From Owenia fusiformis (taxonomy: Eukaryota), in contig CAIIXF020000001.1 in assembly GCA_903813345.2 (NCBI GenBank), forward strand, positions 3,906,001-3,970,000: a stretch of DNA of 64,000 nucleotides, written 5' to 3'. Made by a program: the position numbers and the translations under genes. The notes under the pieces were generated by a model that did not search any database, was not told the origin of the DNA, and saw only the letters and a list, made by a program, of their open reading frames with translations. Positions 25,907 through 63,496 of the stretch are shown piece by piece (the first letter of the stretch is position 1; each line of letters opens with the position of its first letter).

Positions 25907-33712
<7,806 letters not shown>

Positions 33713-36400: not shown

Positions 36401-36864
36401 TTTATTTTATTCGAAAGATGGTTCCTTTCATTCTGGTTCACTTTACCAACTTGTAAAAGTTTCGATACGCGACATCATATTATGGAGAAACGATGTCAAT
36501 TTTTCCTTATTATAGTACCCCGGACAGGTTGTATGATGCAGTCGTTTTTTTACTCTATATTTGCAACAGAACAACCATTCTTATTAAAATTTTCATATTT
36601 TATTCTGGAGACAATTTCCAACATGGAAAAAAAATATTTTAACGAAATTCCCAATTTTATGATTTTGACGGACTTTTTCCCAAAACACTACACTGTCAAT
36701 AAAATACAGGTTTTTGCTTGAACAATTGAACTTTTAACGTAATTTAAAATATTGTCTGGCTATTGAATTTTCGGCCGCCTAAAGTCTTTCCAGATATGAC
36801 TGTTGCCATATTAATAATTATGTCTGATTAATGATATTCACTTGAGTAATATTCAATATTATTA

Positions 36865-37267
36865 CAGTGCATTAGGCCAATAAAATGATAAAAACTTGTT
36901 GCTCTGGGTCTAGTTTTGTGAAGTGTTCCCTAGATTGAGCCCAGATAGAGGATGTCAATCTTCTTGTCCACGGACATGAGTTCAACCCGTTCAAACTGTT
37001 CAATACTGTCCAAAATGAAGTAAAACATTACGAATCTCGAATTTCAAGTATTCTTGGCATTAGATCCTTCAGAGATGTTAATATAGCTGTGTCAAATGTT
37101 ATCATGAAATTATCAGGGAGACCTGACATTTTAAAAGCATGGTACAATTTACGTGCCACAGGCTTGCATGCTGAGTGACGGTGGCGGAAAAACCCAGTGG
37201 AGAAAAAGGTGCGTTTTCAGAGGAAACGTGACTCAGAGTGACAAGTTTTTATTGGTCTAATGCACTG
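36865..37267. mobile_element. Tc1/mariner-type MITE with TA TSD
   Basis: TA|CAGTGCATTAGGCCAATAAAA...TTTTATTGGTCTAATGCACTG|TA. Confidence 0.75.
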
Positions 37268-37308
37268 TAATAATGTTAGCCCTATTGAATATGACAAAAA
37301 TGAATAAC

Positions 37309-40300
37309 AACTAGACATGTAAATTGAACAAGTTCAATTTAAGACTCCAGATTTAATTCTTTTTTTAAGCTGAGTCATCCAGAATACTTGTAAGCTGAGT
37401 CATCCAGAATAAGCTGATCGAGTCAGCTAGAATTTAGACATTTAGACAACTCTCCATTTTTTATCTTCGACTCCATTGGCTTAACATGGGGATATCATCA
37501 TATCGACTTTTCGAGACTTCAAACCGCTATAACTATCTAACCAGAAGTAAGATTGTATTTTGGTTTAAAGATTCGGACTCCTGAGAAAATTCTACCCTTA
37601 ATTCATAACTCATACATTAAATTTGGAGATTTTTTTATTTTGACCTACTTTTTGGACACCATATCTCAAAAGTGGGTCAAAATACTTTCTGACGGCAAAA
37701 GGCTATCACTATAAGCACACTCTTTGCTACCTGTATACAAAATTTCGAAGCAAATCATTAAAGTGTAATGTCAGAATCGCAAAAATAAGGAAAATTATGA
37801 ATTTGCCCTAGATTTTGACCTTGGCATTTTGGTGTCCAAATTTTAAAGCTAGATAGCCTTCGAGGTCCCCTTCTTTTAAAGGCTTTCAGAATGTTAAGCT
37901 GTACTCAGTCTATATCTGGTATTTTAGACTTCAAAAAAATCTTTTTCCCTATTGACATAACATGGGGCACCAAATTTAGCAATTTTTGAGCTTTCAAACG
38001 CTATAACTTTCAAACAGAAAGTCGGATCGAAATTTGGTTTGCAGATTCAGATTCCTCAGAAAATTCTATCCTTATTTCATAACTCATATGCTAAATTCGG
38101 AGAACTTTTATTTTGACCTACTTTTCGGACACCATATCTCAAAAGTGGGTCAAAATACTCTCTGACGGCAAAAGGCTAACACTATTAGCACACTCTTTGC
38201 TACCTGTATACAAAATTTTGAAGCAAATCCTAAAAGTGTAGTGCCAGAATCGCAAAAATAAGGAAAAACTATGAATTTGACCTAGATTTTGACCTAGGCA
38301 TTTTGGTGTCCAAATATTGAAACTAGGTAGCTTTTGAGGTCCCCTTCTTTTATAGGAATTCATTATCTTAAGCTGTACTCAATCTATATCTCGTATTTTA
38401 CACTTCAAAAAAATCTTTTTTCCTTGACTTTCTATCAGGATAACATCAGATCGATTTTTCTCGAAATTTCAAAACGCCATAACTTTCAAACCGGTAGTCG
38501 GATCGAAATTTGATTTAAAGATTCGGATTCCTGACAAAATTCTACCCCTTATTCATAACTCATACGTTAAATTTGGCGAATTTTTATTTTGACCTACTTT
38601 TAGGACACGCCATTACTTTGGAACTGGAAGTCGGATCGACATTTGGTTTGCAGATTCGGATTCCTGAGAAAATTCTACTCTTAATTCATAACTCATACGT
38701 AAAATTTGGAGAATTTTTTATTTTGACCTACTTTTCGGACACCATATCTCAAAAGTGGGTCAAAATACTCTCTGACGGCAAAAGGCTAACACTATAAGCT
38801 CACTCTTTGCTACCTGTATACAAAATTTCGAAGCAAATCCTAAAAGTGTAGTGCCAGAATCGCAAAAATAAGGAAAAACTATGTATTTGACCTAGATTTT
38901 GACCTAGGGATTTTGGTGTCCAAATTTTAAAGCTAGTTAGCCTTCGAGGTCCCCTTCTTTTATAGACTTTCAGAATCTTAAGCTGTACTCAGTCTTTATC
39001 TGGTATTTTACACTTCAAAAAAATCTTTTTTCTCATTGACATAACATGGGGCACCAAAATTAGCGATTTTTGAGCTTTCAAAACGCCATAACTTCCCAAC
39101 GAAAAGTCGGATTGAAATTTGGTTTGCAGATTCGGATTCCTGAGAAAATTCTACCCTTAATTCATAACTCATAAGTTAAATTATGAGAAATTTTTATTTT
39201 GACCTACTTTACGGACACCATATCTCAAAAGTGGGTCAAAATACTTTCTGACGGCAAAAGGCTCTCACTATTAGCACACTCTTTGCTACCTGTATACAAA
39301 ATTTTGAAGCAAATCCTAAAAGTGTAGTGCCAGAATCGCAAAAATAAGGAAAAACTATGAATTTGACCTAGATTTTGACCTAGGCATTCTGGTGTCCAAA
39401 TTTCGAAGCTATGTAGCTTTTGAGGTCCCCTTCTTTTATAGGCATTGAATATGTTAAGCTGAACTCAGTCTATATCTTGTATTTTACACTTCGAAAAAGC
39501 CTTTTTTCCCATTGACTTAACATAAGCACCAAATTTAGCGATTTTTGAGATTTCAAAACGCTATAACTTCCGAACCGGAAGTCGGATCAAAATTTTGTTT
39601 GCAGATTCGGATTCCTGAGATAATTCTACACTTATTTGATAATTCACACGTTGAATTTGGAGAACTTTTTATGTTCTGACCTACTTTTCGGACGCCATAT
39701 CTCAAAATCGGTAAGAGTAATCAAAAAACGGTTTGCCTTACGGAATTAGCTTTTTTTCTAAGGAACATGATGAAAAAAACCCGGAGCGAAAATACCAAAG
39801 GACGACTGAGAAAACTTGTGAAATAGCAAAAAGAGACGATTTGACCTAGTTCTTGACCTATGACCTAGATAAACATTTGACCTAATTTCCCAGAAACTAG
39901 AACTCATTACCTAGTTGACTATGTTAGCAGATTTTAGGAAGTCCCTCTAGTTGCTGAGAAAACGCGGAAAGAAAGAAAAATAATAATAATAATAATAACT
40001 AGATTTTGGAAATTGAACGAAGTTCAATTTCAGACTCCAGATCTAGACTTTTTTTTAGCCGAGTCATCCAGAATAAGCCGAGTCATCCAGAATAAGCTGA
40101 GTCATCTAGAAAGAGATGGATAAATAAAATAGGAAGGTAGGATAGGATAGAATAGGAAAGAACGATAGGATAGAATAAGAAAGAAGGATAGGATAGAATA
40201 GAATAGGAAGAAAGGATAGGATAGGATAGGATAGGAAGGAAACGATATGAAGGAAGGATAGATAGGAAGGATAGGGTAGGATGAGATAGAAAGGATGGAT

Positions 40301-43300
40301 GAATTTTTCAATATTTTCTTCTCTACTCTTGACTTTCTATGAGGATACCATCAGATCGATTTTTCTTGAAATTTCAAAACGTCATAACTTCCGAACCGGA
40401 AGTCGGATCGAAATTTGATTTGCAGATTCGGATTCCTGACAAAATTCTACCCCTAATTCATAACTCATACGTTAAATTTGGAGATTTTTTATTTTGACCT
40501 ACTTTTCGGACACGCCATAACTTCCGAACCGGAAGTCGGATTGAAATTTGGTTTGAAGATCCGGATTCCTGACAAAATTCTACCCTTAATTCATAACTCA
40601 TATATTAAATTTTGAGAACTTTTTATTTTGACCTACTTTTCGGACACCATATCTCAAAAGTGGATCAAAATACTTTCTGACGGCAAAAGGCTAACACTAT
40701 TAGCATATTCTTGGCTACATGTATACACAATTTCGAAGAATATAATTAAAGTGTAGTGTCAGAATCGAAAAAATAAGGAAAACCTATGAATTTGACCTAG
40801 ATTTTGACCTAGGCATTTCGGTGTCCAAATTTTGAAGCTAGATGGCTTTTGAGGCCTCCTTCTTTTAAAGGCTTTGATTATATGAAGCTGAACTCAGTCT
40901 TTATTCCGTATTTTTCACTTCAAAAAAATATTTTTTCCCATTGACTTAACATGGGCACCAAATTTAGCGATTTTTGAGTTTTCAAAACGCCATAACTTCC
41001 GAACTGGAAGTCGGATCGAAATTTCGTTTTCAGATTTGGAATCCTGAGAAAATTTCCTATAAGACTAATATCCTGGACATTTGATTCGGAGAACTTTTTT
41101 TTGGACCTCGTTTTCGGACAATGATATCTCGAAATCGGTTTGAGATATCAAAAAACTAAATCGACCCTAGGTTTCCTACTTTTTTATAAGGAACACAATG
41201 AAAAAAAACCGGATCAAAAATATTGAAGGATGACCGAGAAAATCGAAAAAAGTGACAAAGTACTGGATTTGACCTAGTTCTTGACCTTTGACCTAGATAA
41301 AAATTTGACCCAATTTCCAGAGAACTAGATACTGAACCTAAATTGACCAAATGATTGACTTTACTGAAGACCTTATGGTTATTGAGAAAACTGGGTTAGA
41401 ATAATAAGAAGAAGAATAACTAGACATGTAAATTGAACAAGTTCAATTTAAGACTCCAGATTTAATTCTTTTTTTAAGCTGAGTCATCCAGAATACTTGT
41501 AAGCTGAGTCATCCAGAATAAGCTGATCGAGTCAGCTAGAATTTAGACATTTAGACAACTCTCCATTTTTTATCTTCGACTCCATTGGCTTAACATGGGG
41601 ATATCATCATATCGACTTTTCGAGACTTCAAACCGCTATAACTATCTAACCAGAAGTTAGATTGTATTTTGGTTTAAAGATTCGGACTCCTGAGAAAATT
41701 CTACCCTTAATTCATAACTCATACATTAAATTTGGAGATTTTTTTAATTTGACCTACTTTTTGGACACCATATCTCAAAAGTGGGTCAAAATACTTTCTG
41801 ACGGCAAAAGGCTATCACTATAAGCACACTCTTTGCTACCTGTATACAAAATTTCGAAGCAAATCATTAAAGTGTAATGTCAGAATCGCAAAAATAAGGA
41901 AAATTATGAATTTGCCCTAGATTTTGACCTTGGCATTTTGGTGTCCAAATTTTAAAGCTAGATAGCCTTCGAGGTCCCCTTCTTTTAAAGGCTTTCAGAA
42001 TGTTAAGCTGTACTCAGTCTATATCTGGTATTTTAATCTTTTTCCCTATTGACATAACATGGGGCACCAAATTTAGCGATTTTTGAGCTTTCAAACGCTA
42101 TAACTTTCAAACAGAAAGTCGGATCGAAATTTGGTTTGCAGATTCAGATTCCTCAGAAAATTCTATCCTTATTTCATAACTCATATGCTAAATTCGGAGA
42201 ACTTTTATTTTGACCTACTTTTCGGACACCATATCTCAAAAGTGGGTCAAAATACTCTCTGACGGCAAAAGGCTAACACTATTAGCACACTCTTTGCTAC
42301 CTGTATACAAAATTTTGAAGCAAATCCTAAAAGTGTAGTGCCAGAATCGCAAAAATAAGGAAAAACTATGAATTTGACCTAGATTTTGACTTAGGCATTT
42401 TGGTGTCCAAATATTGAAACTAGGTAGCTTTTGAGGTCCCCTTCTTTTATAGGAATTCATTATCTTAAGCTGTACTCAATCTATATCTCGTATTTTACAC
42501 TTCAAAAAAATCTTTTTTCCTTGACTTTCTATCAGGATAACATCAGATCGATTTTTCTCGAAATTTCAAAACGCCATAACTTTCAAACCGGAAGTCGGAT
42601 CGAAATTTGATTTAAAGATTCGGATTCCTGACAAAATTCTACCCCTTATTCATAACTCATACGTTAAATTTGGCGAATTTTTATTTTGACCTACTTTTAG
42701 GACACGCCATAACTTTGGAACTGGAAGTCGGATCGAAATTTGGTTTGCAGATTCGGATTCCTGAGAAAATTCTACTCTTAATTCATAACTCATATGTAAA
42801 ATTTGGAGAATTTTTTATTTTGACCTACTTTTCGGACACCATATCTCAAAAGTGGGTCAAAATACTCTCTGACGGCAAAAGGCTAACACTATAAGCTCAC
42901 TCTTTGCTACCTGTATACAAAATTTCGAAGCAAATCCTAAAAGTGTAGTGCCAGAATCGCAAAAATAAGGAAAAACTATGTATTTGACCTAGATTTTGAC
43001 CTAGGGATTTTGGTGTCCAAATTTTAAAGCTAGATAGCCTTCGAGGTCCCCTTCTTTTATAGACTTTGAGAATCTTAAGCTGTACTCAGTCTTTATCTGG
43101 TATTTTACACTTCAAAAAAATCTTTTTTCTCATTGACATAACATGGGGCACCAAAATTAGCGATTTTTGAGCTTTCAAAACGCCATAACTTCCCAACGAA
43201 AAGTCAGATTGAAATTTGGTTTGCAGATTCGGATTCCTGAGAAAATTCTACCCTTAATTCATAACTCATAAGTTAAATTATGAGAAATTTTTATTTTGAC

Positions 43301-44246
43301 CTACTTTACGGACACCATATCTCAAAAGTGGGTCAAAATACTTTCTGACGGCAAAAGGCTCTCACTATTAACACACTCTTTGCTACCTGTATACAAAATT
43401 TTGAAGCAAATCCTAAAAGTGTAGTGCCAGAATCGCAAAAATAAGGAAAAACTATGAATTTGACCTAGATTTTGACCTAGGCATTCTGGTGTCCAAATTT
43501 CGAAGCTATGTAGCTTTTGAGGTCCCCTTCTTTTATAGGCATTCAATATGTTAAGCTGAACTCAGTCTATATCTTGTATTTTACACTTCGAAAAGGCCTT
43601 TTTTCCCATTGACTTAACATGGGCACCAAATTTAGCGATTTTTGAGATTTCGAAACGCTATAACTTCCGAACCGGAAGTCGGATCAAAATTTTGTTTGCA
43701 GATTCGGATTCCTGAGATAATTCTACACTTATTTGATAATTCACACGTTGAATTTGGAGAACTTTTTATGTTCTGACCTACTTTTTGGACGCCATATCTC
43801 AAAATCGGTAAGAGTAATCAAAAAACGGTTTGCCTTACAGAATTAGCTTTTTTTCTAAGGAACATGATGAAAAAAACCCGGAGCGAAAATACCAAAGGAC
43901 GACTGAGAAAACTTGTGAAATAGCAAAAAGAGACGATTTGACCTAGTTCTTGACCTTTGACCTAGATAAACATTTGACCTAATTTCCCAGAAACTAGAAC
44001 TCATTACCTAGTTGACTATGTTAGCAGATTTTAGGAAGTCCCTCTAGTTGCTGAGAAAACGCGGAAAGAAAGAAAAATAATAATAATAATAATAATAATA
44101 AGAAAACTGGCAAAAGCAATAGACTCCAGATGAAATCTGGAGTCTAATAAGAAAACTGACGAAAACAATAGACTCCAGATTTCATCTGGAGTCTAATAAG
44201 AAAACTGGCAAAAGCAATAGACTCCAGATGAAATCTGGAGTCTAAT
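37309..44246 (-). mobile_element. Three nested Helentron-like (HINE) elements with internal satellite arrays (~475-bp monomer, ~136-bp sub-repeat)
   Basis: Left ends AACTAGA..AAATTGAAC-NN-GTTCAATTT..AGACTCCAGAT at 37309, 39997 and 41418. Three stacked 49-bp right ends with hairpin TAGACTCCAGAT-NNN-ATCTGGAGTCTA at 44100, 44149 and 44198. Monomer marker CTCAAAAGTGGGTCAAAATACT repeats throughout. Copies 1 and 3 are nearly identical (ORFs 38139/42236 and 38573/42670). Confidence 0.8.
40108..40300 (+). repeat. Degenerate purine-rich (GGATA)n microsatellite inside the middle nested element
   Basis: GGATAGGATAGAATAGGAAAG... run; it explains the spurious YPIL-rich ORF 40102-. Confidence 0.85.
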
Positions 44247-44784
44247 AATCAGCCATAATTAATATGGCATCAAATACATTCGGAAAGACTTTAGGCGGCC
44301 AAAAATTCAATAACTAGACAATATTTGAAATGACGTTAAAAGTTTAATTGTTCAAGCAAAACCTGTATTTTATTGACAGTGCAGTGTTTTTGAAAAAAGC
44401 CCGTTAAAATCATAAAATTGGGAATTTCGTTAAAATATTTTTTTTCCATGTTGGAAATTGTCTCCGGAATAAAATATGAAAATTTTAATAAGAATGGTTG
44501 TTCTATTGCAAATATAGAATAAAAAAACGACTGCATCATACAACCTGTCCGGGGTACTATACAAATAGAAGATCATGAAACTTCACCCATAAATGTGAAA
44601 TTGATTTGTCGAAATAAAAAAAATGTGTGACGATCTAATAATTGCTGTACAACAGTCAGAGGTGTTGACACAACGACCTTGAGCCTGATGTGAACTGCTT
44701 GAATACTTATTATTCCAGGATCGAGCCTTTTGCACTTTAACGGCTATATAATGTCATGACTGGGGACTAGGGACTTTTTTCGTC

Positions 44785-45392
44785 TCTTTTACAAGTAACA
44801 ATTCGAAGACAATTTATAAGAGAAAGATTTGTTGAAAAATGGTCAGACAATCCTTTTAAAAAGTCTACTTTGGACTTTTTCGTCCAATGAAGTTACGTTT
44901 TAAGGCAAAGTAACGTTAAAAGAGTTAAAAAGTTAAAGTCCAATAAGGTTACGTTTTTATGGCAAAGTAACGTGTTTTGAAAATGTTTACATAAAAATTC
45001 ATTCGGCATTGTTTGTGTGGCGATAAGTCAAAGTCCAATAAAGTTACGTTTTAAGGTAATATTACGTTTTTTACAGCAAAGTAACGTGTTTTGAAAATGT
45101 TTACATAACAATTCATCCATTCTTCGTGGTTACGTTTTTAAGGCAAAGTAACGTGTTTTGAAAATCCATACTAGACTAGGCCTATACATAAAAATCATCC
45201 ATTTTAGCGGAAAAGTTAAAGGCCAATTAAGTTGTTTAAGGCAAAGTAACGTGAGTAAAAATGCAAACGTTACTCTTCACGAAGAATGATTAAGTAAGTC
45301 CAAAGTAGCGCTTTTTAAAAGGATTATCTGACCATTTTTCAACACTGAATCTTTCTCTTATAAATTGTCTTCGAATTGTTACTTGTAAAGAG
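44785..45392. mobile_element. Foldback element with ~95-bp TIRs and internal palindromic repeats, upstream of RCHY1
   Basis: TTACAAGTAACAATTCGAAGACAATTTATAAGAGAAAGATT versus AATCTTTCTCTTATAAATTGTCTTCGAATTGTTACTTGTAA; about five internal variants of GTTACGTTTT(T)AAGGCAAAGTAACG. Confidence 0.7.

Positions 45393-57918: not shown

Positions 57919-63496
<5,578 letters not shown>

Follow-up and report, generated by a model that had tools for sequence, protein, structure and literature searches.

The window analysed here is a 64-kb stretch of DNA (C1:3906001-3970000) from the Owenia fusiformis assembly, which comprises 499.5 Mb. It raises the question of how three related element bodies came to lie one behind the other, followed by a stack of three short palindromic units. 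A sequence-only reading of this DNA had proposed three Helentron-like elements, each inserted into the microsatellite of the previous one. Our results indicate that the locus very probably arose when members of a high-copy, non-autonomous HLE2 family inserted three times, independently and by the rolling-circle route, the second and third each landing in the tract of the prior copy. The parts of the locus, in window positions, are as follows.

36511-44561, no strand assigned: host foldback/MITE-like element, with arms 36511-36916 and 37224-37309 plus 44245-44561
37310-44244, minus strand: outer element A (non-autonomous, Helentron/HLE2-like), with its body at 37310-39997 and its displaced spacer and head at 44196-44244
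37321-37340 and 37342-37352, minus strand: 3' end signals of A, a stem-loop and a subTIR, respectively; the minus-strand end is CTAGT
37511-39707, no strand assigned: central tandem array of A, with units of ~475 bp and 133-bp sub-units
39976-39997, minus strand: left portion of the (AAT)n/(TTA)n tract of A, which B enters at the head-proximal ATA^ATAA site
39998-44195, minus strand: middle element B (divergent subfamily), with its body at 39998-41418 and its displaced spacer and head at 44147-44195
40009-40031 and 40032-40042, minus strand: 3' end signals of B, a stem-loop and a subTIR, respectively
40129-40300, no strand assigned: (ATAGG)n-like microsatellite within B
41419-44146, minus strand: innermost element A', uninterrupted, 2728 bp, with an (AAT)8.7 tract at 44076-44101
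44120-44146, minus strand: head 1 (subTIR and inverted repeat; plus-strand loop GAA), belonging to A'
44169-44195, minus strand: head 2 (loop TTC), assigned to B on the basis of uninterrupted B-type copies
44218-44244, minus strand: head 3 (loop GAA), assigned to A on the basis of uninterrupted A-type copies

On the plus strand, an element reads ACTAG...GTCTA. The three ACTAG ends are at positions 37310, 39998, and 41419; the body starts first placed at 37309, 39997, and 41418 are present with their landmarks shifted by 1-2 bases. The bodies of A and B finish in (AAT)n or AAT/AAG tracts without a terminus, and the next ACTAG follows immediately. Behind the bodies, the palindromic units recur with a period of 49 bp (3.1 copies). 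The first and third units do not differ from each other, while unit 2 departs from them in its loop (TTC versus GAA) and its spacer. The bodies, the tracts, and the stacked units had been described from the letters alone, and they stand. Folding of the head stack gave z = -15 relative to shuffles, and the hairpin pattern displayed 537 exact matches genome-wide and none in the reversed control. The alignment of A and A' contained 2656 matches, 20 substitutions, one 12-bp deletion, and one additional AAT (99% identity). Meanwhile, B displayed 81-86% similarity to A over long alignment blocks. The nest splits the right arm of the foldback, and the element boundary was set such that the re-joined site has the same length as the opposite foldback arm.

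Other features were detected in the window. A second inverted-repeat element with internal short repeats (44788-45389; arms of 42 bp, 100% identical) adjoins the foldback. A LINE-like reverse transcriptase fragment (PF00078) lies on the minus strand at 26634-27971. The minus strand also holds, at 59357-59752, an exon encoding an adenylate/guanylate cyclase catalytic domain (PF00211), and the nest may lie in or near such a cyclase gene.

The layout of the elements provided insights into the class to which they belong. Read on the minus strand, it consists of a head formed by a 5' subTIR and an inverted repeat, a 22-bp spacer, a (TTA/TTC)n tract, a tandem-repeat body, a subTIR, a stem-loop, and the terminal CTAGT. 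The subTIRs are 11 nt long, within the 11-18 nt of HLE2 elements, and are placed asymmetrically: one lies 1 base in from the head end and the other 32 bases in from the opposite end. As in HLE2 elements, stem-loops with stems of 9-10 bp lie between the 3' subTIR and the end (folding z = -1.5 in the A region and -4.6 in the B region). No stop-free frame of at least 130 aa occurs within 37310-44244, as in the non-autonomous members of that class. The HLE2 definition in the available text of PMC11417382 fits this layout. A DINE-1-like layout, in the accessible part of PMC4067079, has an inverted repeat 3-22 bp from the 5' subTIR; here, the head loop measures 3-5 nt, the tract lies 22 bp behind the head, and the body contains the 475/133-bp arrays. 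Judged by layout, the members of the nest are non-autonomous Helentron/HLE2 elements of the HINE type, in agreement with the identity first proposed for them. The canonical Helitrons (HLE1) were rejected as a candidate class: these have a 5' TC, a 3' CTRR, insertion at A^T, and no terminal inverted repeats, whereas the element here starts with TAGAC, inserts at T^T, and has subTIRs. The sole resemblance to HLE1 is a CTAG near the 3' end.

The stacked units had been taken for the terminal hairpins of the bodies. Under the DINE-1/HLE2 convention, they would be 5' heads on the minus strand rather than 3' stem-loops, each made of a subTIR and an inverted repeat, and the supposed starts would be 3' stem-loop ends. 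This naming of the 5' and 3' ends rests on convention because the ORF of a candidate autonomous sister-family element, described below, runs toward the head. The CRISPR look that had been ascribed to the hairpin stacks is incidental, and a CRISPR-like array was rejected: each unit is the end of an element, the DNA is eukaryotic, and the 22-bp spacers, instead of being unique, fall into a small number of subfamily variants.

Next to the ends of the elements, a short target motif recurs. With the element boundary set as above, the junction was T^T at 30 of 30 outer host sites, including eight loci in which the two flanks may stem from different events. The bases to the left of the outer junction were TNAT in 26 of these sites, and those to the right were TAT in 23, while heads were followed by ATNA in 115 of 120 cases. 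No target-site duplication was observed: once the nest in the window is taken out, the interrupted arm has the same length as the opposite arm of the foldback. Only one base was common across the junction at 15 of the 30 sites, and 3-9 bases of periodic ATA were common at the remainder. These junctions point to TNAT^TAT, without duplication, as the target. The earlier proposal of (TTA)n as the preferred target holds in that the family carries its own target, but the real target is this short motif. A requirement for a long microsatellite was rejected, as only 4 of the 30 outer host sites have (AAT)4A. An uninterrupted tract holds about four AATAA sites, and those proximal to the head are mildly favoured (28% observed versus 17% expected). 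Of 65 head-to-head gaps, 35 measure 22, 25, or 28 bases. Insertion about 49 bp from the end, as first suggested, describes the spacing at this locus, but 49 bp is only the shortest head spacing, and most others add approximately 3n bases. In one unrelated host repeat, the (AAT)n tract was entered independently by two different subfamilies.

Nesting predicts which head each body should own. To follow this in lone copies, as the sequence-only reading had suggested, we used the best 30 matches to the body end of A' and the best 30 to that of B (40 scored of 2372 and 1861 candidates, respectively). Among the A-type copies, 17 were interrupted at the tract by another copy, 12 were uninterrupted, and one was classed as other. 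The uninterrupted copies, one of which is A' itself, displayed the spacer of units 1 and 3 in 12 of 12 cases and the GAA loop in 9 of 12. The B-type copies comprised 18 interrupted and 12 uninterrupted ones, and the latter displayed the unit-2 spacer in 12 of 12 cases and the TTC loop in 9 of 12. No spacer swap between the two types was found among these 12 and 12 uninterrupted copies. The pairing tests, together with evidence given below that A' is not a duplicate of A, agree with the order originally proposed, with B inserted into A and A' into B.

In a bracket test, heads were assigned with a nearest-neighbour predictor trained on 52 uninterrupted copies, which was exact for 29 of 52 in leave-one-out. 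Outer elements with a gap >4.5 kb were excluded, a false head (c32770:7880) was dropped by hand, and a variant start (c22585:15618) was added. The last-in-first-out head matched for 18 of 52 outer elements versus 9.5 in permutations (p = 0.00015), with one row, the window's own A predicted from A', not being independent. Balanced loci, in which bodies equal heads, matched in 8 of 12 cases versus 4.6 in permutations (p = 0.011), and unbalanced loci were exact in only 10 of 40 versus 4.9. The expectation that n bodies are followed by n stacked ends is not a strict rule: only 6 of 19 multi-element loci were balanced, and some of the 13 unbalanced ones are cut at the edges of the fetched sequence. 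The locus C1:3414045-3430562 closes perfectly, with nine opens and nine closes, including one sister-family pair. Other loci have host flanks on both sides and yet are short of heads, with 8 bodies and 4 heads (C1:19.84 Mb), 4 and 2, 4 and 3, or 2 and 1. At C1:0.94 Mb, one solo-length body between host flanks has two identical heads. Other processes also act at the unbalanced loci. They would be explained by units lost from or added to the head array, or by transposition beginning or ending at a wrong terminus.

The body with two heads at C1:0.94 Mb and the head-poor loci fit a model of composite copying, which was proposed for the Fusarium FoHelis in the available text of PMC5148889. In this model, the transposase starts at the outer head and stops at the inner 3' end or reads through, so that a few primary nests are multiplied. 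However, the inner elements of the 17 interrupted A-type copies belong to many different subfamilies. Only one pair among these 17 copies, and one pair among the 18 interrupted B-type copies, shared the same near-identical inner element and the same tract junction. The window's own nest is also balanced, and we consider composite copying very unlikely as the main source of nests. Local tandem duplication or unequal exchange could also be invoked, with A' produced from A and the heads multiplied. A and A' are 99% identical, and a tandem head array lets exchange add or remove units, which would account for the unbalanced loci. Over the last 1200 bp, however, A' differs from A by 12 changes and from five unlinked copies by 9-11, and A differs from eight other copies by 4-6. 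Hence, A' is no closer to A than to unlinked copies, and inner elements and junctions are rarely shared in pairs, indicating that local duplication and composite copying explain little here. Moreover, the middle head fits the subfamily of B, and copying A would not flank the head of B with one head per side without extra events. Duplication is largely refuted for this locus, and we regard it as highly improbable.

An error of assembly was weighed as well, as the region is highly repetitive and read support is absent for this exact locus. Against it stand at least 937 junctions genome-wide that place the spacer of one copy no more than 12 bases after the palindromic end of another (reversed control 0), with varied spacing. 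In addition, head order tracks subfamily, and joining the two flanks restores an arm as long as the opposite one of the foldback. Raw reads from one other, diverged sample also contained stacks, with head-to-head joints at a distance of 52 bp in 40 reads in each of two runs, which indicates that stacks exist outside this assembly; these reads gave no depth on the unique flank of this locus, and no allele lacking some or all of the insertions was seen among them. A repeat mis-assembly thus appears extremely improbable.

Three successive nested insertions remain our preferred account of the locus. A transposase, presumably supplied in trans by a partner that was not found at the loci described below, would insert copies at TNAT^TAT and leave the target unduplicated. 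Behind the head of each copy, at a distance of 22-45 bp, lie several of these sites, on one strand. An insertion there would split the old head from the old body and supply a fresh tract. With repeated hits, nests of uniform orientation would grow, their bodies following in series and their heads stacked at intervals of about 50 bp. At this locus, A very probably entered the foldback arm, B entered A, and A' entered B. The nesting would follow from a short TTA repeat, present in each copy, that serves the family as its favoured landing site. The anatomy, the match between bodies and heads, the target motif, the independence of the insertions, and their frequency across the genome are observed, whereas we infer both the rolling-circle chemistry and the end that would be nicked first.

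The family comprises about 2,800 copies, with 2860 genome-wide matches to the stem-loop (3') end and 2708 to the palindromic end (heads), and none in the reversed controls. These matches cluster, and the clusters are co-oriented; a lone opposite-strand start in the fetched loci is a separate element beyond a solo copy. The co-oriented nests span up to 53 kb, with the next spanning 50 kb. On C1, four heads have no 3' end listed for them. Three 3' fragments of about 0.9 kb that lack a head have the same left flank, as if carried by another repeat. Within the 53-kb nest, at C1 ~22612800-22622800, a 717-bp unit is repeated in tandem about 14 times; every unit includes 140 bp of family sequence, and the array is possibly a satellite born from the element.

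We used contiguous C1 up to 25.6 Mb as a chromosome sample with 106 elements (the locus c32770, outside this range, was left out). Among the 106 starts, 53 were in the tract of another copy, 13 just past a head, and 40 in host DNA. No next landmark occurred within 4.5 kb for 10 of the 106 elements, and 49 of 96 scorable copies were interrupted. Weight matrices from 30 host sites predict 1.0%, 2.6%, and 10% of insertions in tracts at widths of 8, 12, and 20 bases, rough figures in which the window flanks stand in for the genome. Set against this prediction of 1-10%, the 53 of 106 starts in tracts bear out the suggestion that the family carries its own preferred target and inserts into itself repeatedly. 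The same range of C1 holds 64 (AAT)4A tracts, 39 of them outside the family. Roughly 4 of 43 non-family tracts were occupied versus 49 of 96 family tracts, again rough figures, as some of the outside tracts belong to other Helentron families.

The excess of insertions in tracts over the host-site prediction hints at homing or selective retention. As to what would cause this preference over host sites, cooperative tract recognition, a guiding role of the resident head, or the loss of insertions elsewhere through selection could be responsible. Two sister families, with other subTIR heads and the same AAT tract layout, nest with the main family (e.g., C1:3426911-3428452), and one sister family has 47 heads and 69 ends. 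The entry of sister families with different subTIRs into the same nests argues against strictly family-specific subTIR recognition. We tentatively put forward, as a possibility we hold to be somewhat less than even, that active homing on resident relatives takes place among these HLE2 elements. The landing pad would then consist of head, spacer, and (TTA)n tract, be common to at least three families with different subTIRs, and be used much more often than host sites of the same local sequence, giving rise to safe havens and satellite-like blocks of tens of kb. This suggestion stems from the contrast between the predicted 1-10% and the observed 50%, from the occupancy of family versus non-family tracts, and from the head-proximal bias.

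PF14214 displayed 63 matches in the genome. All eight intact RepHel frames scanned carry DUF6570, which is named as an HLE2 marker in the available text of PMC11417382, and five carry an endonuclease domain. An autonomous element with the ends of this family was absent at 9 of the 63 PF14214 loci, eight covered at +/-7.5 kb and one on one side, and the ends could lie farther out. No RepHel frame was found within the long nest gaps, which consist of unrelated DNA, the 717-bp tandem array, and, as judged by eye, an RT-like frame of 710 aa. At C12:19506441-19534020, a sister-family end and head 27.5 kb apart, with about 8 kb of the span unread, flank an intact 3164-aa RepHel (OTU, DUF6570, Rep, Pif1) that had no endonuclease match at 1e-5. 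This frame is oriented toward the head, and the head of a third family comes next, making it a candidate autonomous element that sits within a different family. For HLE2, reversed frames are described in the accessible part of PMC5148889. Two apparently full-length autonomous HLE2 elements of other families lie at C6 ~5172600-5184700 and C1 ~4661045-4673230, with intact frames of 2508 aa and 2053 aa, respectively. In both, a head of subTIR and inverted repeat follows TTAT, upstream of the RepHel frame. Small unplaced contigs (C13, C158, C790, C809, and others) hold clusters of intact RepHel frames of ~3000 aa, dozens in all, which suggests a repeat-rich compartment, e.g., telomeric or heterochromatic DNA.

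Elements that carry the sequence targeted by their own machinery are known among retrotransposons. Alu and L1 insert into the A-rich tails of older Alus, and Dong retrotransposons insert into TAA repeats, resulting in clusters and nests as in the present family. Those elements, however, use target-primed reverse transcription and are not rolling-circle DNA elements. Among the latter, the DINE-1/HINE elements of Thomas et al. 2014 share subTIRs, an inverted repeat a few bases from the 5' subTIR, a microsatellite behind it, central tandem repeats, a 3' stem-loop, T^T insertion, and an unmodified target with the family described here. The accessible part of that paper (PMC4067079) differs in that its targets are T-rich or TT and it describes no insertion of copies into the microsatellite of the element itself, whereas here the target is TNAT^TAT and the tract is made up of target sites.

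The Fusarium Helitron2 elements FoHeli1 and FoHeli2 (Chellapan et al. 2016, PMC5148889) resemble the present family, in the available text, in their asymmetric inverted repeats, hairpins at both ends, and insertion after TNAT; the figure legend gives the site as before T and the main text as before A. The same source attributes FoHelis with several 5' termini <200 bp apart to self-insertion. Stacked termini through self-insertion, supported here, had thus already been proposed for fungal Helitron2. That available text holds one nested example, "a number" of multi-5' elements, and no microsatellite landing tract, whereas here about half of the sampled copies, from many subfamilies, are nested in stretches of up to 53 kb. 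Cg_HINE of the Pacific oyster (Vojvoda Zeljko et al. 2020, PMC7492417), also lophotrochozoan, has a 5' subTIR, inverted repeat, and microsatellite, satellite-like central arrays, a 3' subTIR and palindrome, and insertion at TT without TSD. In the text available, its microsatellites are mostly of the GTCY type, and the word "nested" is absent from the main text. The accessible portion of a review (PMC12628747) describes, for oyster, Helitron parts that are shuffled and inserted into one another with no fixed landing site, and dimers arising through insertion-site preference in Drosophila.

The element class and the idea of self-insertion are already published. In the literature searched, with supplements and most subscription journals outside it, we found no published Helentron that mainly targets its own microsatellite, nor this scale of nesting and excess over host-site expectation. 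No printed account was found of a landing tract that the element carries with it, of a nesting rate of 50%, or of use of the tract across families. Self-nesting, known in outline from fungi, is unusually strong in this animal.

These findings have implications for the understanding of rolling-circle transposons. By carrying its own target, such an element has a concrete route to build long satellite-like blocks. The TNAT^T target is suggested to be common to fungal and animal HLE2. Nests keep the order of insertion, so the activity of subfamilies can be ranked. Annotation pipelines in which each left end is joined to the closest right end will annotate families of this kind wrongly. If the excess of insertions in tracts reflects true homing, HLE2 transposases would be target-selective integrases.
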